Shown piece after piece: positions 8,187-54,860 of a stretch of 64,000 bases of DNA (position 1 is the stretch's first letter; every line of letters begins with the position of its first letter). Origin of the DNA: Yuukianura sp. NJ FZ-2021. Its lineage: Eukaryota. Location of the stretch: positions 3,844,001 to 3,908,000 of the forward strand of contig CM102284.1 in NCBI GenBank assembly GCA_046563655.1, read 5' to 3'. A program made the translations under genes and the position numbers. The notes under the pieces were generated by a model. The model worked only from the letters and a program-made list of their open reading frames with translations, was not told the origin of the DNA and searched no databases.

Positions 8187-9259
8187 TCGCAAGCTAATAA
8201 TAGATTCTAACGTTCTACCAACTTCTACACCCCGAAAACTAGTTAAATTAACTCAATTACTTCACATAATTCAATTTATAAATAATTTGCAATGAAAACA
8301 CACATCACGTGTTAAGTTTGAATTTAATTCATCATATTAGTAGCTGACTTGAGTAAAATGTAAAGTGCGACGGGGGTCAAGGGTTCAAAAATGTCGGGAA
8401 CTGTAGGACTTTAAACCGGAAATAACAATAGCCTAGTAATTACTAAATTAATTTTACTATTAAATTAATAGTTTCACCTTCAATTACGTTTACAAGGTAC
8501 AGTTAGTCATCTCAGTCATCATCACAGCAATTCCCAACAACGTTATCCATTCGAGCTCTTCTGTTCTGTAGATCCACCATTTTACCCTCATCATCATCCC
8601 TTTAACAAAAACAAGTTTGGTGGTAGTGGTTGATAGAATGTGATTAACTAATTAATCTAATTACTAACACCTAATGTTGAAGGAATAACAAGTGAATCGT
8701 GTTCTAACTAAAATCTATTAAATACTTAAATACTAAATAGTACACCACTGTACACTGTTAGTTACTCAAGTGTAAGTGAATGAGCGAGTTAATATCGTTT
8801 TAGTTAAAGACATTATTGCAGTAAAATTGTCAACTATTCCTAAATAGTCGTTCTAAAAACAATTAATCAAACAATACTTTTGTTTTCAAAAGTCATCAGT
8901 GCAAGTATTGGTAATTAAATTCAAAATGCAAAGTCAGTCCGCTAAAACGTTTACAATCAGGATTTCAATGTCCTTGAAATTTTCAAGGACATTGGGCCCT
9001 TCCGAAACCAATGCTCAACACTTGAACAAGCACAATAAAAACAATTAATTACTGGAGTTAAATGGAAATACTTAACTTTTACAAAGAACACGAAGTGTTT
9101 ATGGAAAATGAAAGGTTGAGGTTGTTGAGTTAATTGTGCATTAAATAGGTTTTACAGTATAATTTACAGTGATTCTTCAAAATCCATCACAAAGTCTTTC
9201 CTTAAAGCAGTTTTAACATGCACTTTGGGGTTATTACTGGCAAAACGTTGGTCTTCTTC

Positions 9260-12200
9260 TTATGCTTCTTCATCTTCTTCGTCAACTTTACTTAGTTTTG
9301 AGCATTTTGCAAAAATGGTGGGAATCAGTACAAAAAGACTGGAGAAAAGAATAAAAATTCCTGCAATCCAAAATGACCAAGAACTCGTCAGAGTCCAGTC
9401 ACAGATCAAACCGGCAATCGGAGGACCAACAAGGTTTCTGTAAACAATTTTTTAATCAACAATATGTAATTAACAGTCATTACGTCAGATTAATGAAGTA
9501 AACAATAATAAATCATTATTGTCTTACCCAATGCCTTGTATTAACAATAGAAGGCCATAAGCAGAGGCAAAGCGTTCTAAGCTTACAACCTGGAATGTTC
9601 AGAAGTAAATATATTATTATTAGTTTTTGTTGACTTGATGTATCTAAGGTCAACTTTTGTTTTTAATAAGCTGACCTTAACGAGTATGACCGAAGTGAGA
9701 GAGTAGTTGGCAGCGATTGCCAAGCCGTAGAGTCCACAGACCATGGCTAAGGGGATGTAACCCCAGCTCAACATAGTGGGAACCATTATGGCGGAAAATC
9801 CACACACGATCATACAGATCCCATACACCAAAGAAGCGTCAATCCATTCTTTGTCTCCCATGTACCCCAAACTCAACTGAAATCCAAAAATTAACCTTAC
9901 AATTTTCATGTGAACGAACAATTTTTGCAGTTATAACGATTTTCTTACATTTCCAACCATGTTGAAAAGTCCAAGAATGGAAATGAGGTAGGACGCTTCG
10001 TTTTCGCTGTAGTTTAGATGCAATGCAGAGTCTTGGAGGTAAATGTACGCAACATCATACCTTAAAAAATTAGTAAGTGTAATTACTTTTCAAATTAACT
10101 GCGATCATAACTCTCAAAAGTTGGAAACTTACCACATGTAGAGCAGAAAGTTTGAGAAGATGAACAGAATGAATCTCCGACTGCAGGCAAGACTTCGCCA
10201 CTGGAACAGAGCATGTATCCATTTGCAAATGTCGGACACTACAGCCTTCCATTCCTAAAACAAACCAAAATCAATTTAAATCGTGACCTTGAACTTTTTT
10301 CAAGGTCATTTGTATTACTACCGCTTAGGGACTTACATGAGTCGTGTGCTCCGTTGTGGCAACGGAGATTATGTCAGGACAAGAGGAGGCGGGGCGAAGT
10401 CTGTAGCGCTTCAATGACAGAACAGCACCACGGTATGTCAAGGAATGACGATGAGCACCAGCATCCGAACTGAAAAACCAACTTTCATGAAATTTTTTTA
10501 AAAAGATCAAAAATTTTTCATATTTAGTTTGAACTTTGAATGAACAACTTGGCTTCAAAACATTGACGTTAGCAGACCATGACGATTAAAATTGACGTTA
10601 CCTGTTAGGCACTGTTGGTTGGAACTGCGTTTGAGGAAGTCCATGGACAGTGGATGTATTGCATGCATTTGAGTGGTGTCTCTTTGGTGGAGTTCCACCT
10701 CCAAGACTTTCAATTCCAGTAAAAGGTTGATTTGGTACTTGAGTGTTGACTCCATTTTTGTTTTTGTAGTAGCGAGGAGGTGACTTCCGAATGGAATCGC
10801 TGGCTGGTCTGGTAGGAGTAGTTGGGGAATTATTGCTCAATTGATAAATGGCATGAGGTGGAATTGGTCTGCGCGGAGTGTCTCCAGCCGCAATTGTTTG
10901 ATTCCTGGCCCTGGACGCAATACGAGCAGATCGTTCTTGGTCTTGGACAAAAGTGGGAATGCAAATGGCCGATGAGCAGAGTCTCTTGGGGTACGAGGCC
11001 GTGGTGTCTCCATTTGCAGAAGAATCCAGACTGGGTGAATTTCTAAACAAAAAAAGAAGATTACAAACCACGATTACACATCTCGAAATAAATCGATTAC
11101 TCTTGTTTTCTTGGATTACTTTAATTTCCGTGAAGATCTAGATTTCTTTGTCCATTCCAGGTCACGCATGACGAGTCCACAGCAACACAAGTACAGAAAC
11201 GGGATAGACAGAATTCTAGTGGCATTTTGCCAACCAAATTTTGCTGAGCATAGGAAAAGTTAAAAATTACTTGTAAGTTCATTAAATGATTGCGCTGTTA
11301 AAGTATAATTAACTTACTAATTAACAATTGTGTTAAAGGCGAGAAAATAAAAGTTCCTATTCCACCGCCACAGACTGAAATTCCAGTGGCAAGAGAGCGT
11401 CGTTGTTCAAAGTAGTAGGCAACACTAACTACTGCAGCGACATAGCACAGGGACAGTCCGAACCCAGTGATCATTCCGAAAGTAACGTAGAGCATTTCAA
11501 TTGAGGCTAAAGAAAAAAATTCAAAATTCAAAATTTTATCAAATTTCAAATTGGAGCTCATTTCCATTTCTATTACAAAATTTTATAAAATTACTGCTGC
11601 AAATGATTTCAACTCACTTGCAAAGGAAGACAGAATGAAGCCGAGTGAAGATAAAAAGCCACCGACGACAGTCACTTTGCGACAACCGTATCGATCTGCA
11701 AGGGACGAAGCGATTGGACCAGACAAAAGTGGCATTGCAGCTAACAGGCTTCCGATCCAAGCTAAATACATACAAATGCATTACATAAATACTGAATACT
11801 TGCGATTTCGAATGTGCTCCGTAAGTTAAGTACCAAATTCAACAACAACGTGGCAATTCCAACTCAACTTCGAAAACCCAAAGTATAACTAACCTGTAGC
11901 TGATTTGGATTTTTGGAAATACTCTTGAAATTCAATAAAGAAAGTTCCAAAGGAGAAAGTGACGCCGTCAGCCACCATGTTGATGAAGAACGCTGCAGCG
12001 ACCACGACCCACCTAATGTCAAAGATTTCAAAAAATATTTAAAATTTCAAAAATATTTCAATTTTCTAAAATTCTTACCCCCAACCCCCATCAGGGGCTT
12101 GTCGTTCCAAAGTAGAAGACGCTTCCGATTCATCTGACGAGTCTTCCCCAGAAGAGTCTTCGGGTAACAGCGGCTTGTCACTGTTCGGTATTTCCGGTTT

Positions 12201-21558: not shown

Positions 21559-22272
21559 CTCACTTCCGAATTAGGATTAACTTCCTCGGTAAAGCTTTGC
21601 TTCTCAATTGTTAATTGTCCTGAAAATTCATTACTAATTAATTATACTAGTTAGCTTAGCTAATGTGGCATTTTCTATTTAAATAACATTCTTGGCTCTT
21701 TAGTTTTGTTTTCCGTTGATCTTTTGCCATTTTCCAAGTTACCCACAGAGGTTTTCTTTTCTAAAATTGAATAAAAAATTTAACTCAATATTACTGTAAT
21801 GTAAAGTTCTAAAGCAAAAGGAAGGTCTGGTTTATCGTTTTCATATGTTAGGGTTGCAAAGCTCCGAACACGATAAACCAAACCAGCGATTTGTTGGAGA
21901 AACTCAATGCTTCTTTGTAAATGTTTGTCTTAATCTTGAGAGCTTCAAGTTGACAGAAAACAGAACCAAATCTCTCATTTTTTATAAATCTAAAATTGAA
22001 CGCTAATTTTTGTTTCGAGCGTAGTATCTGACCAAGGATCTACCAAGTTCAAAAACATGTTTTTCAGTTCGGCACTTGAAATGTGGTTCAAGAACACTGA
22101 ACTTTATTCCTCATGACAAAAGTCTAAATGGACATGTATGTCTATTAATGCAATGTGTAGTTATGTGCAACTTTTTGTGTTATGTCATCCGTATCAGTTT
22201 GACCTGATGATGAGCGATGACATTACTGATGACATAACTTTAGAGAATATTCCTGAACAAAGCAGTTCGTGT

Positions 22273-22869
22273 CGAAGCACGCCAATACATCAAAAAAAAG
22301 ACATCAGCTGAAAAGACATCAACACGAAAGACATCAACCAGAAAGACATCAACACAAAACACATCAACAATGCAAACACATCAACAATGAAAAGACATCA
22401 AAACTAAAAGACATCAACAGAAATTTTATTTTTATACCCGGATATAAAATTTGGGATTTTTTTTTCAAAATTTTGAAAAAAAAGTAAGTCTGGCCATACT
22501 ATCACAGTTAGCAATACTGATGACGTGTGGCTAGCTTAGCCTGCGGTACCGCGCCGAAGGCGCGGCGTTAGGTTTGGTAAAGCACGCCAAAGGGATTACG
22601 TCTGTAGGTTCGATTGTCTAAGTCCGGCTTATTAAATTTTCAAAATTTCAAAAAAAAATCCTTATTTCTTTTCTGTTGATTTCTTTTGGTTTTGATGTCT
22701 TTTTATTGTTGATGTGTTTGTATTGTTGATGTCTTTTGTATTGATGTCTTTTGGGTTGATGTGTTTTTATAGTTGATGTGTTTGCATTATTGATGTCTTT
22801 CTGGTTGATGTCTTTTGTGTTGATGTCTTTTCAGTTGATGTCTATTTTTTGATGTATTGGCATGGACCC
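22273..22869. mobile_element. Foldback-like non-autonomous element with long modular inverted repeats
   Basis: Left arm of AAAAGACATCAAC-type units mirrored by GTTGATGTCTTTT units on the right. Termini GCCAATACATCAAAAAA / TTTTTTGATGTATTGGC. Direct repeat GTTCGTGT at 22265-22272 and 22870-22877. Confidence 0.82.
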
Positions 22870-23373
22870 GTTCGTGTGGTGATAATTGATGTTTCATCAC
22901 CCGTTTTTATCCAGACGAATCCTGGTCTGTTTATGGAGAAAGCCACATGAGAAGTGTTTTTAGATTTAAAGTTGAAAAAATAAATCAACCATCGCGTTGG
23001 TTGACACGTAACAGTTGAAGTGGATTTTGAACTGAAACCGTGTTATCTTCCCTTGACGTCAGCCTTGGGTTGTGGTCATTTGTAGAGGGAGGGACACTAA
23101 TTTTAGTAGGATAGCGTCCGTGACATGGCAATGTCAAGCCAAACATTGGAAATTAATCTGAAGCTGATGGTTGAAATGATGAGGGCATAGTAACCGAGAG
23201 ATGAAATTATGTAGCGTCTAACGGATCCAGGCGTTTGTGAAGCTTGGCCACTTGACAAAGTCGAGTATTTATCCAGGACGTGCCCTCGCATTGGTCTCAG
23301 TCTTTGCTTGCTCACTGCAGTAGTGACATCCTGCTTCGCCTCTCGTCTACTTTTTTCAAAATACTTCAGCGCC

Positions 23374-25470
23374 ATGACTGGAAACCGCAACCCCGAAATC
23401 AAATATACTGGCGTAAGTTAGCATTTCTCAAAGTTTAGCTTCCTACTTGTCAAATTGACTAATTGTGGATAATTAATCAATGGAATTGTCAAATTTTGAT
23501 TACAGATCTTCATCAACAATGAATTTGTCCCATCCAAGAGTGGAAAAGTTTTTCCAACTCTGAACCCATGTACTGGCAAGAAAATTGTGGATATTGCTGA
23601 GGGAGACAAGGTGAGTAAACTTTTTTTCTCAAGATTTTAAGATTTTCAAGGTCATTTCATTAGTTTTGAAATTGAAAATTTCTTGGTTTGCATTTTTTCA
23701 GGCCGATGTCGATGCTGCAGTCGTAGCTGCAAGAGCTGCTTTCAAGCCTGGTAGCCCATGGCGCTCAATGGACGCTTCTGCTCGTGGAAAGTTGATGCAC
23801 AAGGTAAGTTTTCAATTCACATAATTCACAAACCTACTAATCAAAAATTTTGAGGAATTCTATTTTCATAAATTGTTTATGACTCTTTCTTTTGTAAACT
23901 AGCTTGCTGATTTGATCGAACGCGACCGTGCCCAACTTGCAGCCCTCGAAACGATTGACAATGGGAAGCCATACACAGATGCTGACTTTGACATTACCTG
24001 CGCCGTGGATGTGATCAGGTACTTCGCTGGATGGGCCGACAAGATTCACGGAGACACCATTCCAGTCGGTACGTCGACAACCGTCCTAACTTCTGTTAAA
24101 TTAACAAAAGATTCGAAAAAGTTCAAGGTCACTCCTAAATTGTCAAGTCGAGAGTCCAAATGCATGCAATTTGTAATTATAACTTTTTTTATTTCTCCTA
24201 TTTGTGGAAGGAAGTGCTAATTAAGTGGCTTTTATTTCACGGCCATGACTAATTAGAATTGAATGTTAATTAAGATTTTGCGGGTTTCAGCCTGTCAGGC
24301 TCATCTTCATTTGCTTTTTTTCTCTAGATGGAAACTTCTTGACATTTACCCGAAAAGAACCAATTGGAGTCGTCGGCAGTGTCATTCCATGGAACTATCC
24401 AATTCTTATGACATCATGGAAGCTCGGACCAACAATTGCCACTGGATGCACCATGATCCTCAAACCAGCCGAACAGACGCCTCTGTCAGCCCTTCACATT
24501 GCATCACTCTTCAAGGAAGCTGGATTCCCACCAGGAGTTTTCAATGTCGTCCCAGGATACGGACCAACGGCGGGAGCAGCCATTTCCAATCACATGGACA
24601 TTGACAAAGTTGCATTTACTGGATCCACGGAAGTAGGACGCCTCATCTTCGGTGCTGCTGCTCAGAGCAACTTGAAGCGTGTCACACTCGAACTCGGTGG
24701 CAAGAGTCCACTCATCGTCTGCGAAGACGCAGACGTCACCGAAGCAGCCACTATTGCCCATGGAGCCATTTTTGCCAACCATGGACAAAATTGTTGTGCT
24801 GGCTCTCGCACATTCGTCCAAGCCAAGATCTACGACGAATTTGTGAAGAAGGCAACTGAGTTGGCCAACGCCCGTGTCGTTGGTGATCCATTTGTTGAGG
24901 GAACTCAGCAAGGACCACAAATTGACCAAGATCAACTGGACAAAATCGTTGACCTCATTGAATCTGGAAAGAAGCAAGGAGCCAAGGTTCAGTGTGGAGG
25001 AGCCCGACATGGGACTGAAGGCTACTTCGTCAAGCCCACTGTGTTCTCAGATGTCACTGACAACATGAGAATCGCCACTGAAGAAATCTTTGGACCAGTC
25101 CAACAGATTCTGAAGTTCGATACTATGGATGAAGTCATTGAACGTGCCAATAGTACCAAGTATGGTCTTGCCGCTGGAATCATCACCAAGGACATCAACA
25201 AGGCTCTCACGTTCATCCAACACGTCCAAGCTGGATCTGTCTGGGTCAACTGCTACGACGCTGTTGTTCCACAGGCACCATTCGGAGGATTCAAGGAATC
25301 TGGACAAGGGCGTGAACTGTAAGATTCTAACAACCAAGCCATAAAATTTCAATTTACTTAAAATCTTTTTGATTTCACATTAACTTTTTTATGTTTTCAG
25401 CGGAGAGGCTGCCCTGAAGGAGTACTTGGAAAGCAAGACGGTTACGATTGCCCTTGACCAAAAGCTTTAA
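23374..25470 (+). CDS. Aldehyde dehydrogenase, ALDH1A/ALDH2 family (no obvious mitochondrial presequence)
   Basis: [50 protein letters not shown], catalytic [24 protein letters not shown]. Six exons, stop at 25468-25470. Confidence 0.96.
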
Positions 25471-26346
25471 GATACACGCTCTGTTTTCATCTTAAATTCA
25501 TCTAGTTTTCCTGCAAACCTTGTTACACCTTTCTCTTTTCAATTTCTTCAATAAAAATGTCAAAGATGCTATTACTAAACTCCAATCATATTTTTTATAT
25601 GTCCTTTCGAGGTTTTTTATTGGTGGAAATGCTAGATAAGCTTGCAGAAATGAAATAATGAAAAGCTTCATAAAGATTCTCCATTTCCTTTCTCTGAATC
25701 TGCCATATTAAAGTTGATCTTGAAGTGTGAAATGATCATTTTGAAAGAAGTACTCAGGCAGTCAATAACCAGAAAAACAGGAGTAGCAGGAAGATTTATT
25801 TTAGCTAAGTCGGATATGGAAGTGTGAAACCAGAAATTAGTGAAAATGTCTGGAAGGCGTGCCAAAGGGCTGTAAAAATAACACTAATGGAACAGGAACA
25901 AGAAGCGTATGATTGCATAAGGATATGAACATGATCTCATCCCTTGGATATAGCTCAAGGTTAGGAACCTCATTTCTATCAAAGTCTCCTTGCCAAACAC
26001 ACACAACATCATTTTGCACAAAACAATCCACTTGGCACAAGCGCTTCAAACAAAAGGGAAAGACAAGCTGTGCTGTAGTCTCACTTTTTTAGATTTCAGC
26101 CCCTGTTCAAACAAATTTACTCTCAAGTCATCACAAGTTAAAGCAAACTAAAACTTAAATTCAAACAAACTCAACTTTTCAAGAACCAATTAACTCTGAA
26201 AGCGTCACGTACTCCACTTGAATCGGTTGAGCTAACTTTCTGGAAGATTCGGCACTGGACAGCACTTGAAGTTGCAGAGATTCGTTGGGTCACGTTGAGG
26301 TCATCTCAATTTAGAGATTAACTAACAAGGCCAATTACTACATACA

Positions 26347-26354
26347 TATAAAAG
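26347..26354 (+). promoter_or_regulatory. TATA box of the GNAT gene
   Basis: TATAAAAG about 25 nt upstream of an Inr-like TCACTC (near 26370), followed by a GTAAGC donor at 26392. Confidence 0.5.
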
Positions 26355-26521
26355 TGCCTCTCACACGCTTCACTCCGCAAAGTTAAACTCGGTAAGCTTA
26401 GGTTTTCACTTTCTCTCTCTCTGTTTTCAACAAAGTTCCGAATTGCAAATTTCCAAATTTGCAAAAATTGGCAATTATGTTTCCAGTTACTACCGCCAGC
26501 AGTGATTCTCCACGGAGAAAA

Positions 26522-27064
26522 ATGCCTACCATTCAACCTTCAACGGAAGACGACATTCCGGAACTCATGACCTTAGTTCACAGTGCCTACAGAGGTGAAG
26601 GGTCAAAGGTCGGCTGGACAACAGAAGCGGATCTTCTGGACGGCTCGAGAATAACTGCAGAAACAATGAAGAGTTACATTGACAAAAAGAATGCCGTTTT
26701 CCTGAAATACGAAGAACAAGTTGAATCTCCCGAAGACGTTCAGATTCTCGGTTGTATATTTCTAGAAAAAGTGGTCAAGAAGGATGAACTGAAGTGTTAC
26801 CTCGGACTGCTCACCGTGGCACCTCAAATGCAAAGTAAAGGAATTGGAAAGCAATTGCTACAATTTGCATTTGATTGGGCCAAGAACCAAGGATGCTCTG
26901 CCGTATTCATGACCGTCATTTCCTGTCGTGAAGAACTTATCAAATGGTACAATAATGTCGGATTTGTCGATACCGGCGAACGGGAACCATTTTTTACCGA
27001 CCCCGAATTTGGAATTCCGAAACAACATCTCGAATTTGCAGTTTTAGAAAAACGACTCGACTAA
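26522..27064 (+). CDS. GNAT-family N-acetyltransferase, bacterial-type, intron-free CDS
   Basis: 180-aa ORF with LVHSAYRGEGSKVGWTTEADLLDGSR, acetyl-CoA motif YLGLLTVAPQMQSKGIGKQLL, MTVISCREELIKWY..GFVDTGEREPF, LEFAVLEK. The upstream in-frame ATG at 26477 lies inside a predicted 5'UTR intron (26392-26486). Confidence 0.9.
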   Translation: MPTIQPSTEDDIPELMTLVHSAYRGEGSKVGWTTEADLLDGSRITAETMKSYIDKKNAVFLKYEEQVESPEDVQILGCIFLEKVVKKDELKCYLGLLTVAPQMQSKGIGKQLLQFAFDWAKNQGCSAVFMTVISCREELIKWYNNVGFVDTGEREPFFTDPEFGIPKQHLEFAVLEKRLD

Positions 27065-27453
27065 AGTGAAAAACCGATAAGCCCCGCCTATATGTCAAGT
27101 CAACAACGATCAATAATCCTCAACCTCAAGTGTGCAGCTTACTCCAAAACAATCTAAACGTATCCTAAATTTTACTTTAATTATACAAATTGTAATTGTT
27201 ATAGTTGTTACAAAAACTCCAATAATCAAACGCAACGTGGGCTTTCAGTTTCTCGCATTTCATTTGAACTCTAAATGGTGACTATAATATTCCTTCTTCC
27301 AAAATTCATAAAAAGTGTCAAGTGTTGTATACTGGAGCTTTTTAATTATGCTTTCAAAGCTCGATGTTCAGTTTTAAACAAGTTGGTTAAATAAATTACG
27401 CTCAAAGAAGTGTGTTCTTTTGAACAAACTTGTGCTATTAAGTTTAAATTGAA

Positions 27454-30253
27454 TCATAGTATTTTAGCCAGTGTGGCTTTTGCGCGTAGCGATTTCTTCT
27501 TCTTGTTTGCAGCCGCTGTAGCGGCACAGTAGTCGATGAGTTTCGGATCCAACGGAATCGATAGTCCGGTGAGACGAGCAAAGTAAATCCGAGCAGCTTG
27601 GTGATTCACGTGAATTTTTTCAACAAATGTTTGTTGGTAGGCCTGAAAATAACAAACAAATCATCCAAAAGCGAAAAATGACACTGATGAAAGCTAAAAT
27701 GAAAAGAATACAACGAGTAATGAAATTTTTTAGCACATACTCCTTCCAATTCCTCCAGTTTGCCATGAGACACAGCTTCTTCTTCTGTAAGCAAAACGCA
27801 ATTCCACGGTGTCCACGGTTCAGCCTTGTTCCAGCGACAAAGGCGAAGAAGGTAGCGGTTGTCCATTCCGCTCAGCGCTGATTGGCCATGCCAAAGCTGC
27901 TCAACCAAAAACTGAAGGTCATAAACCTGGAAACAGCAAAATACAGAGGTCAAGGTCATGATTTAGCAAACAGTAATTTTTATTACCAATTGTATTGTCT
28001 CTTCTTACGTCAATAAGATACGCCACTGAGTTCTCAACGTTCAGTTCCTGCTCATCAGTCCTCAGTTCATCAAGCATACAACGGTAGAGGTTGAGATCAG
28101 CTCGGAGGATTGACGTTCTGTAAATTCCCATGCATGTTTGGCAGCGATTGATGATCGTGACGCCATTGATGATTGTGAATTGGCTTCGATTCAAGAGTTT
28201 TCGACAACTCTTGCACTGTACCATATCCTTACGTAGGTTCATAGAGTCAAATGGTGTCTACAAAAACAAACAAAGACATTAATAGCGTCATGAGCAGCGT
28301 CAGTCACTCTCATTTCATAAACAAAATACCTTTTGCAACCGAGCTGCTTCTGGATTAAACGAAGGTTCTCGACAGATTCGATAAAACGCGTTTGCAACTC
28401 TACATACAAGATCAAAAAATTCTAAATTTTTTAAAAATTCAAAACGTTTAAGATTGATATACCTTCGTCTAACACTTTCCAGAAGATCGCTTTGGTTCAT
28501 TTGGCCCAGAGCCAATTCTCTACCGATCAAGTCAACCAAGTACCGTGTCATAGCAGAATCGTGGAACTTGATCTGTCAAAAAATAAAAAGTTAAAAAGTT
28601 GCTTCTTGAAAATATTTTCAAAAAAAAATTTGAATTTTGTAGGTAATCAGTGTATTACGTGGTCGTAAACAGTTTCCAGCAAAATATATCGGTCACATTC
28701 ATCCTCAACTGGTTCTCGGAGCGATGCGTACAATTTGGCGAATTGGCGAGAGACGTATCTGGATGGCGTGTCCCAGGACATGAATTTTCCAGCCTTGTTC
28801 AAAGCCCTTGATGGATTTCCCATCTAATCAACAATGTGAAAGTTAGAAATGAAAATACAATTTTGAAAACACAAAAAAGTGTTGGAAAACCTTGAAAAAG
28901 AACAATTTGTTACCTTTCGAAATGCTCTTTCGATTACTTTCTCCCTGAGTCCCTTCTTGATTCTTGATTTTGCTTTTTCCAAATCACCAAGTAAATCCAA
29001 TTCCATTTCAGTCAGTTGAGCCAACGCTGCCTTCCGATCTGGTCCCCAGCGATTGGCTTCAATGTACTCCAGTTCCTTCTGACGCCATTCATTAATGGCA
29101 CGGTAAAGCAACTCTATGTCCAACTGCAAGAAAAGCAGAAACTAATTAAAAGTTTCATTAATTGCAATTAAACTTGAGATTACAAAGAATTTATTTTAAA
29201 TCATACCATAGTTGTGGGGTTGTGTTGTCTCCGGATTTCGTCCTGGATAATCAAAAGTCGAATTTCCGTTCTCCCTTTTCGAATCTACACAAAGATTTTG
29301 AAATTAATTTATCAATTCTCGCATAGATTTTCAGGTTTTTGTTTAAGTTCCAGGCGCATCCGAATGGTACTGACAAATATGCTGCTAAAATGTTTCCTCT
29401 TTCCATTCTCTTTGAAAATTTTTTCAGAATTCTTGCAATTTGCAAAGTTAAAATATTCTGGATTTGCTGACTTTGCAGAAACTTACGTTTTCTGCCCATT
29501 CGACTCTAAGCAGTAAAGCATTGAGTCTTGCCACTCTTTCTCGAATGGCCAGCCAACGACGCCAGTATTTCTGAATGACGATTGCCTAAAAGAGAGGTCA
29601 AAGGTCACATGCCAAGGTTAAAAGTCCAAATACTTTCGATTTCAGAAGTTAGGTTCGACATTGTGAAAGTTTCTTACAGCTTTGATTCTTTTGCGCTCAA
29701 TGAAGTCCGTCGATGCGTAGTGCTTGGCCCACACGACTCTGTTGTCTTTCTGACACAAGTAGTAGTCACGTCGCTCCGTTTGCTGGTACTGATCTGTCAG
29801 AGTCTGGACGGTCTTCCAAGTGTCATGGAATGTCTGAGCGGAGAAGTCCTCCACTGAATTAAAAAATATCAGTTTCCAAAAAAACAAGTTCAATTTTTCA
29901 GTTTGAATTTTCTTTGGTAATTAACTGTTTTCCGCCATCGATTCCTCTTGAAAAGGTGTTTGCGTTTCAGCATTGTGGTAGAGCACTCCGCATCGCTTGT
30001 CACGGTAGCCTCCCAGATATGCTTTCTCAGTCGTAGCACTTTCCACCACCAAAGTCACCGTTTTAAATCCCGAATCTGCAATAAAAACAAAATAAGTAAC
30101 TTAAAAAGTCATGTTAAGTTGAATCAGGAAGAATTTTTAGAAATTACTTGTGAGAATCACCAGCCTCCGCGTTTGTATTTCACCTTGAGGCTCTTCATCA
30201 GCATCTTCAGCTTCAGCTTCCGTTTCGTCGATATTCTCTTCCAGCTCAGACAT
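27454..30253 (-). CDS. IQUB: IQ and ubiquitin-like domain-containing protein (ciliary radial-spoke IQUB-like), N-terminally short
   Basis: KAYLGGYRDKRCGVLYHNAETQT, IQ motif AIVIQKYWRRWLA, DIELLYRAINEWRQKE, FNPEAARLQKV, IWHG-like LWHGQSALSG, RWNKAEPWTPWNCVLLTEEEAVSH. ATG at 30253, stop at 27454-27456. Confidence 0.82.
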
Positions 30254-32600
30254 AATTCAAAATTATCAAAATTCAATGTAAAATTCAAAAGTTGTTGTTG
30301 AAATTACAAGCAGCAATGCAGCGATTGTGCTAAACAAAAAGGTTGACTTGATTTTCCTCGTAAACGAACACTACAAACTGTTTCTTCGATCGTAACTTTC
30401 TACTTTTCCATCAAAAAATATACGTGACTAAAAACTTTGTTGATTTCAATAAATCAATAGACGATGCGTGTACGATGGCTTAGAAACTTAAAATCCAAAG
30501 AAAATTTCTTTTTCAAAATTTTACATTTCAAATCAAAACTAAAGTTGCGAAAATGCTAACTACTCCGAAAGATGCTGCTTTCACTCTAACATTTCCAAAA
30601 TGACTAAATCAAAATCTAAAGGCATTTTAAATTTGAAGAGCAGAATTTTTACTTTTTTTTCGACAACAACAGTAATATGTATAATTATTATTATTCAATA
30701 TTTGGTATTTGACCATAACGTTTAATCCTTGATAAGTTTATGGTAGGTTTTTGTAATTGTAATTTTTAGTAAGTAGTTGAAGTAGTTTTTAAAGAGTACA
30801 AAGGTTTGTCATTCATTTTAATTGTAAGAGTGATTGGATAGCTGGTGAGCAGTTAAAAACCATTTTTAAATTAAGGGCACAGTTAAGTAGGGACAGAACC
30901 AGCAACTGGGCAAGTAGTGCAACACTCGGATATTTTTGGACGAAAACCAAAGGCATTGTAATAGCTAGTAGCTCCACTAATCATCTTAAATCAGCAACAA
31001 CTTAGCAATTCAAAGGACAAACCACCCCCCACCGCCTTGTTTACACTAACCTTCAACTTAAACAGTAGTAAACCCATAACCTTTGACCCTGAGCCCTACT
31101 TTAGATTTTTTGAAGGGTAGGTTGTACATGTGCGTGTCAACAGTGAAACTTTGCGAGAAACTAGAGTTAGAAGTGCAACTTTTTACTTAATTGAGGAATT
31201 AAATTACAAAGTGAGGAGATAAACGTTTCACAGGTTGTGGAATAATTTTTTTTTCATTTTAAACACACATTAGTACACAAGTGCTTAATAAGAGGAAATC
31301 TAATTGAGAGTTTAAAGCTCTAGATTTTAACAGTAACAATTGAAATGATTTCATAAAAAAGAAGAGCTGAAAATTAAATGACCTCACTTATTTGGCTTTT
31401 GAGTGGCTATTTAACGTGTGTTTTGGATTGGAGAAGTTAAGGTGGTGAAAGGCTTTCTTTTCTAAATCCTAAAGTGCACCTATAATCTAAAGTGCTTAAG
31501 TAACAACAACTTGACAAGTCCTAATTCAAGAGAAAGAAGTTTCAGAGTTTTGGATTTCATGTTTCTTAATAAGGTCAGAGTTAAACGAAGTGAAGAAATA
31601 CGATTTTACAATTAATTGTTTTGTGTATTGAAACTTAAAGTGAGTTTTTGGAGAAAGTTGTTTACTCTCAAGTAAATAATTCCTCTTATAACTCACTTCT
31701 TCTTTCCCTTTCATTATTATTTTCATTATTAATTAGAAGAATTAAGAAAGGAAGTTAGATTTAATTTCTACAACAATAAAGATTGTCGGATTCATCGTGT
31801 CCTTCTCTCACCCACCCCCAGCATCCACACTACCAAAAACACGACAGTTCCCACCATTCAAGTCCACAAGGCAATTTTGTCTAGAGAGAAAGGTATGTGA
31901 GAGGTCCCTAACTTTTCAAATCTAGACTCCTTATTGGGTTTTTACTTTAATTTTGATTAGTTAATTTTGTTAATGAGTAGTATAATGACGTTAACTTTTC
32001 CTGACTAGTTGGGTTGACTTTTTTCTTACTAAAAACTTTCTGGGTTCTCTGAGCACCGTCCACTGTCCTGTCTTAAGTGTTTTTTAACATTTTGTATATC
32101 AAAACAAAAAAGACTTGTAAAACGAAACACAAACTTCCCAACAACTTAAAAAAAACTACAACACGAGGAGCTTCCTTTTTAGCCAATGTCTTTTTCATTT
32201 GTTTCAAGTCTCTCGCAAGCACATTACTCTCCATTTCCTCTCCATTTTATCTGATTTACAAGGAAAATATCAACTCACAGTAGAAAAGTCAGCTTAGTAG
32301 CCCAGCCTAAAACGCTGACTTTTCCATTTGACTTGGATTTCAAAAGTTTCCGAAACATTGTTCCAAAAGAGGAAAGAAAAAAGAGACACTTACAAATGAA
32401 AGTGACCATTGACAACTTGACATTGTCGTGGAGGGTGCGTTAAAGAAAGTAAAGAAGGGGCTTTTTGTTGGATTAGAATAATTATTTCTTGTTATAATTT
32501 CCATTGAAATCATTTTTCCATTTTTTTCATGAAGAGCGCGTGTTGAAGGAAAGTGTTTAGTTTCGTAGCTCCTGTGTTTTCCTTTCCTTCTACTCGAATA

Positions 32601-54860
<22,260 letters not shown>

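Follow-up and report, generated by a model that had tools for sequence, protein, structure and literature searches.

A bacterial-type GNAT acetyltransferase gene, probably acquired by horizontal transfer, lies between native genes of a springtail-like arthropod

Captures of bacterial genes are already well known in soil arthropods, so that the phenomenon described here is not new. For ticks, the accessible part of a 2026 report (10.64898/2026.03.13.711553) describes a captured bacterial GNAT acetyltransferase gene with an intron in its 5' untranslated region (UTR) that is backed by RNA-seq; microsynteny between species supports one ancestral event, the host group is the Parasitiformes, the gene being absent from other arthropods according to the authors, and the donor is given as Ignavibacteriota in the results and as "Burkholderia-like" in the discussion. 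For springtails, the accessible part of the Folsomia candida genome paper (PMC5490193) describes numerous genes of foreign origin that are physically linked to native ones; about 30% of them are reported to occur in Orchesella cincta as well. Here, we analysed a stretch of 64,000 nucleotides (nt) (assembly GCA_046563655.1, contig CM102284.1, positions 3,844,001 to 3,908,000; hereafter the window), for which an earlier note, made from the sequence alone, had proposed that an intron-free gene for a bacterial-type GNAT acetyltransferase was acquired horizontally by an animal genome. Linkage to native genes, synteny with a second species, a low nonsynonymous divergence (dN) and mostly Bacteroidota relatives all support this proposal, and we consider it very likely that a bacterial stand-alone GNAT was acquired horizontally, kept, and vertically inherited in springtail-like arthropods.

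Compared with the tick gene, as described in the accessible part of that report, the window gene displays a similar architecture (its intron being predicted) but has another host and other nearest bacteria. Neither tick-named proteins (in the word-seeded and profile searches) nor Folsomia- or Orchesella-named ones are found among the best 120 GNAT matches, of which 2 carry an organism name. Given the different host, the different proposed donor and the lack of a tick-named match, the window gene is most likely a capture independent of that of ticks, involving a different GNAT subfamily. The foreign genes of Folsomia and Orchesella, judging from the accessible literature, resemble the present case in their soil hexapod hosts and in their linkage to native genes. 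The accessible main texts on springtail foreign genes that were searched make no mention of this acetyltransferase, which their supplementary lists may contain, and the accessible main text of a compendium of horizontal gene transfer (HGT) mentions neither acetyltransferases nor springtails. The capture may be restricted to a hexapod sublineage other than that of Folsomia and Orchesella. No description of this GNAT gene was found in the literature searched, where supplementary HGT lists may contain it. Should the host lie outside the two well-studied springtails, a capture that can be dated would be added to those of a group already noted for foreign genes, and the parallel with ticks suggests a repeated uptake of small stand-alone acetyltransferases by soil or blood-feeding arthropods.

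The GNAT coding sequence occupies positions 26522 to 27064 on the + strand (180 codons plus stop), with its ATG at 26522, its stop codon at 27062-27064, and a stop-to-stop frame spanning 26402-27064; it is the only GNAT copy in the 64-kb window. Its 180-amino-acid product aligns end to end with its homologues (94-100% of the query) and the gaps are never intron-sized, therefore the coding part has no intron, in full agreement with what had been claimed for this open reading frame (ORF), which is intact. The Pfam model PF00583 (Acetyltransf_1) matches it with an E-value of 9e-13 and 48.9 bits, the cut-off being 20.7; the GNAT models PF13508 and PF13673 likewise match above their cut-offs. The protein belongs to a bacterial subfamily, annotated at JGI as "RimI-like", "YhbS-like" or "GNAT family N-acetyltransferase" and found mainly in Cytophagales, Chitinophagales, Flavobacteriales and Sphingobacteriales, whose members it matches over 94-100% of its length at 50-59% identity, with all 28 family-invariant columns. 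Like this subfamily (about 170 amino acids, 43-57% identity over the full length, single-copy), it has the N-terminal GWTTEAD loop, the Q-x-x-G-x-G loop and the C-terminal motifs; unlike it, the animal sequences carry one or two short insertions, lie among eukaryotic genes and may possess an intron in the 5'UTR. The start MPTI is common to the window and to a second species (contig L001, see below), and lies at the same position as the bacterial start. Base composition (GC 0.44) was tried as a signal of transfer and set aside as non-discriminating: the GC content at third codon positions (GC3) is 0.42 for the GNAT gene, close to that of the host exons (0.47-0.49), and the bacterial median is 0.43 (range 0.19-0.81).

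The bacterial affinity of the gene is apparent from several searches. A word-seeded search gave 7947 of 8000 scored candidates at E <= 1e-3, and below the six closest sequences (55-77% identity) the list forms a plateau of proteins of about 170 amino acids that are 50-57% identical over 94-100% of the query. Organism names are present on 2 of the best 120 word-search matches (Dadabacteria and Cyclobacteriaceae), and a member of a matching cluster is a Parafilimonas protein. A HMMER scan of 1.84 billion representatives returned 2714 clusters (50% identity level) at E <= 1e-3, 42 of them at E <= 1e-30. No named eukaryote occurs among the best 120 matches of the word-seeded or the profile search, only 2 of the 120 being named in each; for comparison, about half of the matches carry organism names when the search is made with the neighbouring aldehyde dehydrogenase (ALDH). 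Species-representative bacterial and archaeal genomes were then scanned with two peptide patterns, yielding at least 600 matches, and 596 of the 600 listed encode relatives. The best 80 of these at least 600 matches comprise 78 Bacteroidota (28 Cytophagales, 23 Chitinophagales, 11 Flavobacteriales, 8 Sphingobacteriales, 3 Saprospirales, and 5 without an order), 1 Bdellovibrio and 1 unlabelled genome. In an even sample of 201 Bacteroidota genomes, 15 carry one copy (E <= 1e-25), hence the subfamily is patchy even within this phylum. The Atlas neighbours of the protein are bacterial clusters labelled Bacteroidota, Pseudomonadota and Acidobacteriota. Of the distribution given in the earlier note, the Bacteroidetes part agrees with these matches, and one Atlas cluster, labelled Pseudomonadota, bears on the Proteobacteria part; the fungal members that it also listed were not seen among our matches, few of which are named. 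Within the 80 bacterial loci (L081-L160), the commonest and only recurrent neighbour family, the M24 aminopeptidase P, was encountered in just 12, on the same strand and either up- or downstream, and therefore no conserved operon exists.

Seven relatives stand closer to the window protein than the bacterial plateau does (55-77% identity), all with intact full-length ORFs of 173-193 amino acids. When a profile of seven sequences was used as query, the clade members scored 303-348 bits and a new member, P0395, 272 bits, while everything else remained at or below 233 bits. A maximum-likelihood (ML) phylogeny had been called for in the earlier note, and in an unrooted IQ-TREE analysis of 83 rows (LG+C20+F+G4; bootstrap not fully settled) the window protein and P0002-P0007 are monophyletic with a support of 99/93, the inner six reaching 100/97; a FastTree of 421 rows agrees. 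The clade emerges, on a stem of 0.20 changes per column, from a poorly resolved bacterial backbone (a polytomy), but the unrooted tree gives its sister group weak support. Next to the clade stand three sequences (87/85), of which one comes from a 290-kb contig, and deeper forks fall below 80. An insertion before the conserved YLG motif is found clade-wide, and a second, more N-terminal insertion is present in all members but P0007. P0004 and P0006, two clade members with 58-67% identity to the window protein, are reported to lie on a single 4982-nt contig, an indication that the captured gene may have been duplicated in tandem in a related species.

One of the relatives, P0002, is carried by an 11.7-kb metagenome contig (L001) that was found with a profile of close relatives. 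This contig is colinear with the window from 24712 to 35085 (about 10 kb), with the ALDH, the GNAT and the IQUB-domain gene in the same order. Its ALDH 3' exons are 75% identical to those of the window at the nucleotide level, with an intron at the matching place, its GNAT gene is 71% identical in nucleotides and 77% in amino acids, and its IQUB-domain exons, on the opposite strand, form conserved and colinear blocks, beyond which further conserved blocks follow. The intergenic DNA fails to align, except for two short blocks upstream of the GNAT gene. From these sequence comparisons, the window and L001 represent different, well-diverged species with a common insertion, the gene occupying one and the same locus in both. 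The colinear ALDH-GNAT-IQUB order, together with the unalignable intergenic DNA, argues that the gene is no contaminant and has been inherited vertically since the common ancestor of both species. Between the two GNAT genes, dN amounts to 0.15-0.16 and the synonymous divergence (dS) is saturated (undefined by NG86, 3.5 by ML), as compared to a dN of 0.09 and a dS of 1.4-1.7 for the ALDH pair. The GNAT dN/dS ratio is imprecise, yet far below 1, and indicates from the sequences that the gene is kept under purifying selection.

Integration into the host DNA could also be followed in sequencing reads, the stretch being contained in four DNA runs of one sample (X1-X4) and in a run from a second organism. 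Summed word depth in run X1 lies between 160 and 330 in all bins from 23.2 to 32 kb, the GNAT gene included. Two contigs (26079-26532 and 26296-26886) bridge the non-coding upstream DNA and the GNAT coding part, and a contig of the second organism covers 27042-27529, leading from the last 22 nt of the GNAT gene into the IQUB-domain gene. The GNAT gene is physically linked to native genes on one molecule.

Most probably, the ancestor of a small springtail-like (non-insect hexapod) group took up a stand-alone GNAT gene from a bacterium, a gene whose closest living versions are those of soil and freshwater Bacteroidota (Cytophagales, Chitinophagales). The gene would have been inserted between the native ALDH and IQUB-domain genes, and has since been inherited vertically, diverging into at least eight sequences under purifying selection. 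Read in this way, the locus is a clean case, backed by synteny, in which a gene from bacteria has become fixed in the genome of an animal; its coding sequence is intact, the catalytic residues are conserved and selection has left its signs. The direction of the transfer and its donor are what we infer from these data.

Four other explanations were weighed against this scenario. That a bacterial fragment was misjoined into an arthropod scaffold, giving a contaminant or chimeric assembly, would fit an intron-free coding part with 50-57% identity to bacterial proteins, and runs X1-X4 may not be independent of the assembly. No bacterial protein in the word-seeded search exceeds 57% identity, however, just 542 nt are bacterial-like with eukaryotic genes bearing GT-AG introns within about 1 kb on each side, depth is even over the junctions, contigs link the non-coding flank to the coding part, and the identical gene order recurs on an independent contig from a diverged species. 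Such an artefact is extremely improbable, and already close to refuted. The gene could instead be an old eukaryotic one, inherited vertically without transfer and lost in most animals; an unrooted tree with a weakly supported sister group leaves room for it, as do the many database matches lacking an organism name and one Atlas cluster that is merely 88% bacterial. It would demand very many independent losses, though, and the stem of the clade, which emerges from the bacterial polytomy, is no longer than the branches between bacterial subgroups; nor did either search yield a named eukaryote in its best 120 matches, springtail, insect and tick proteomes being in the database. We regard this possibility as very unlikely. 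An indirect route, through a fungus or another eukaryote that had itself gained the bacterial gene, finds some backing in the GNAT transfers into fungi and nematodes that are documented according to the accessible part of the tick report (10.64898/2026.03.13.711553). The earlier note had listed fungal members too, and the tree points to no single donor; against this, the closest matches include no fungal or other eukaryotic sequence, and the nearest labelled sequences are all bacterial, which makes such a detour highly improbable.

The fourth explanation accepts the transfer and holds that the gene is silent or decaying, a non-functional relic. The promoter elements are not beyond chance and the upstream region is poorly conserved, as would be expected of a relic; but the window and seven relatives all have intact full-length ORFs, dN is only 0.15 with dS saturated, and the 28 invariant residues as well as the acetyl-CoA loop are intact, so that decay appears very unlikely. 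Several points nevertheless weigh against a direct and functional bacterial capture as we read it. The reads of X1-X4 perhaps stem from the sample of the window's own assembly and would then not be independent support; only L001, out of the seven close relatives, is placed in eukaryotic DNA; the sister group of the clade is poorly supported (87/85, then below 80) in a tree without a root; and saturation of dS renders the GNAT dN/dS ratio only approximate. Likewise, the Bacteroidota share may be biased, as it comes from the best 80 of at least 600 matches to a two-pattern scan, and the lack of eukaryotic matches is a weak test, with 2 of 120 matches named and the assumption that annotated eukaryote proteomes carry names. 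The even depth, the bridging contigs and the gene order on L001 are at odds with the contaminant or chimera that the earlier note had named as its possible undoing.

With respect to function, the window protein retains every one of the 28 columns that do not vary among 121 members of the family, including Q104, G107, G109 and Y143 and, in the N-terminal part, R24, G25, G31, W32, T33, E35, A36, G41 and R43. The pyrophosphate of acetyl-CoA is bound in GNATs by a loop with the motif Q/R-x-x-G-x-G/A. Residues 104-109 of the window protein (Q104-S-K-G107-I-G109) fit this motif as Q-x-x-G-x-G and form its acetyl-CoA loop. An AlphaFold model (pLDDT 88.1, pTM 0.85) displays the mixed alpha/beta GNAT fold, and a Foldseek search with it found at least 500 PDB chains at E <= 0.001, those listed being all acetyltransferases or GNATs (TM 0.61-0.74, 12-20% identity). 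Both clade insertions lengthen beta-hairpins of the model (beta2-beta3 and beta3-beta4). Residues 21-40, where pLDDT is lower (63-73), could form a flexible acceptor-binding loop according to the model, and the N-terminal segment R24-R43 probably binds the acceptor. When the PDB was searched by sequence and by profile, nothing beyond the acetyl-CoA core could be aligned, and no solved structure was found for the bacterial subfamily, for which no substrate was found either; the captured gene stems from a subfamily that is functionally uncharacterised even in bacteria.

The best solved relative by sequence is RimI, the bS18-alanine N-acetyltransferase (9mto, E 1e-7), which has the GNAT core in common but differs in that the alignment is confined to the acetyl-CoA core, with an identity of about 20%. 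All NCBIfam models tried on the window protein, PaiA included, score far below their cut-offs. On this basis, identity as a RimI was rejected, TIGR01575 reaching 32.5 bits against a cut-off of 86.4 and NF007025 25.2 against 173. The dTDP-fucosamine acetyltransferase WecD/RffC (NF008212, 33.7 against 219; TIGR02382, 30.7 against 195) and the antibiotic acetyltransferases (STAT, 23.2 against 420; AAC(6') group E, 20.4 against 140; Sat4, 16.6 against 380) were discarded as well, the match to the latter being confined to the common GNAT core.

Membership in the family gives a sound basis for the chemistry of the enzyme, the acetylation of an amine by acetyl-CoA; the enzyme would most likely act in the cytosol. 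Since the acetyl-CoA loop, Tyr143 and the N-terminal loop are unchanged with respect to bacteria, the animal enzyme probably carries out the same reaction, and the low dN with saturated dS, together with the conservation of all invariant residues, makes it probable that it is catalytically active. It is conceivable, if rather doubtful, that the captured enzyme provides a bacterial small-molecule acetylation otherwise lacking in animals, such as the inactivation of an amine-bearing antibiotic or toxin of soil microbes. If so, it would be an animal-encoded, resistance-like detoxification enzyme that dates from an old transfer, has been maintained ever since, and has undergone duplication in certain species. 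Knowledge of the substrate would shed light on the bacterial family and, equally, on the reason for which the gene is retained in animals.

We also inspected the DNA upstream of the ATG, where the promoter and intron signals described in the earlier note were all located as claimed: TATAAAAG at 26347-26354, GTAAGC from 26392 and TTTCCAG up to 26486. The candidate TATA box TATAAAAG (26347..26354, + strand) is predicted from its position only, 175 nt 5' of the ATG. The window contains 5 copies where 3.8 are expected, and 32 of 100 shuffles reach 5, so that only its place upstream on the right strand counts as suggestive; the chance of finding it on that strand within 300 nt upstream is about 1%, as a rough estimate made after the fact. 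An initiator (Inr)-like TCACTC lies at 26370; a start there would leave an unusually short first exon, of just 13-20 nt or so. At 26341, immediately 5' of the TATA-like box, a contig of run X2 has an insertion of three bases (ATA), so that the putative core promoter is slightly polymorphic in length. The candidate 5'UTR intron (26392..26486, + strand), predicted wholly upstream of the ATG, runs from GTAAGC to TTATGTTTCCAG, which ends in TTTCCAG; its length (95 nt) is comparable to that of the last ALDH intron (about 80 nt), whose acceptor, TTATGTTTTCAG, is nearly repeated by its own. An in-frame upstream ATG at 26477 would be removed by splicing of this intron, and would otherwise add 15 residues that are absent from every homologue. 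In L001, a GTAAAG donor is present along with a pyrimidine-rich AG acceptor 10 nt before the GNAT ATG, so that in the two species a donor starting with GTAA and an acceptor of this type lie close upstream of the ATG.

Taken as read from the DNA, a predicted RNA polymerase II promoter and a 5'UTR intron are plausible for the GNAT gene, and expression is inferred to proceed through them. Further upstream, about 480-610 nt before the GNAT start, two short blocks on the + strand (25909-25924 and 26034-26046) are conserved with L001, the upstream regions showing no alignment outside them; these blocks are candidate regulatory elements or a candidate upstream UTR exon. Downstream, an AATAAA at 27390..27395 (+ strand), about 325 nt past the stop, is a predicted poly(A) signal.

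The GNAT gene begins about 1.05 kb past the stop codon of its upstream native neighbour and ends 390 nt before the 3' end of its convergent one. The former is an ALDH1-type aldehyde dehydrogenase (23374..25470, + strand; stop at 25468-25470, AATAAA near 25551), with exons at about 23374-23613, 23741-24091, 24324-25319 and 25396-25470; its exon frame 24270-25322 matches the Pfam model Aldedh at E 8e-138, and its last intron runs from GTAAGA to TTATGTTTTCAG. The latter is a multi-exon gene with an IQUB-like domain (27454..30007, - strand), whose 5' end lies further right and whose exon 28315-28575 matches Pfam IQUB (PF25805; E 2e-8, 34.1 bits against 27.8). Both flanking genes are therefore present as had been described; "intron-rich" suits the IQUB-domain gene but is generous for the ALDH gene, which has an exon of 332 codons. 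Other exons of the window match the Pfam families GIDE, PUF/NOP9, EMP70 and P450, and arthropods dominate the Atlas cluster that lies nearest to the P450 exon.

Among named matches of the ALDH exon, the best is Orchesella dallaii (77% identity), with insects at 70-76% and Folsomia candida at 72%; environmental sequences reach up to 83%. In a quick IQ-TREE of 37 rows, the window ALDH falls within a starred group of 14 rows (99) with Folsomia, Orchesella and 11 others, although outside an inner group of 12 rows that holds both genera, while all 18 named insects and one other row constitute a separate starred group of 19 (95). Based on these sequence relationships, the ALDH is a native springtail-type gene. 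The host is an arthropod, in all probability a springtail or another hexapod allied to springtails rather than an insect, and stands at some distance from the annotated species. The idea that adjacency to the ALDH points to a detoxification role for the GNAT finds no support: the ALDH is native, and the bacterial homologues of the GNAT have no conserved neighbour.

A few further observations were made in the window. No Rfam match was found in the intervals 20-32 kb and 32-36 kb. Two blocks at 33352-33459 and 33603-33820 (9173-9280 and 9377-9586 in L001) are 89-91% identical in nucleotides between the two species, with still higher identity in their cores, while ordinary coding exons of this pair are only 66-75% identical and saturated at synonymous sites. 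The spacer between the blocks is unalignable, splice-like sites flank them, and neither an Rfam match nor, on the ORFs tried, a Pfam match was obtained; they may be ultra-conserved exons with an additional constraint at the RNA level. The segment 56000-57400 contains many long overlapping open frames on both strands, has an AT skew of -0.35 and gives weak, sub-threshold Pfam matches only, and looks like a compositionally odd or repetitive region. Finally, about 0.5 kb upstream of the first mapped ALDH exon, the contigs of three runs skip an element of 607 bp (22266-22874), with "AT" at the joint; the summed word depth climbs over it from about 250 to 41,000, and it looks like a very high-copy, MITE-like (miniature inverted-repeat transposable element) mobile element that is polymorphic for presence and absence.

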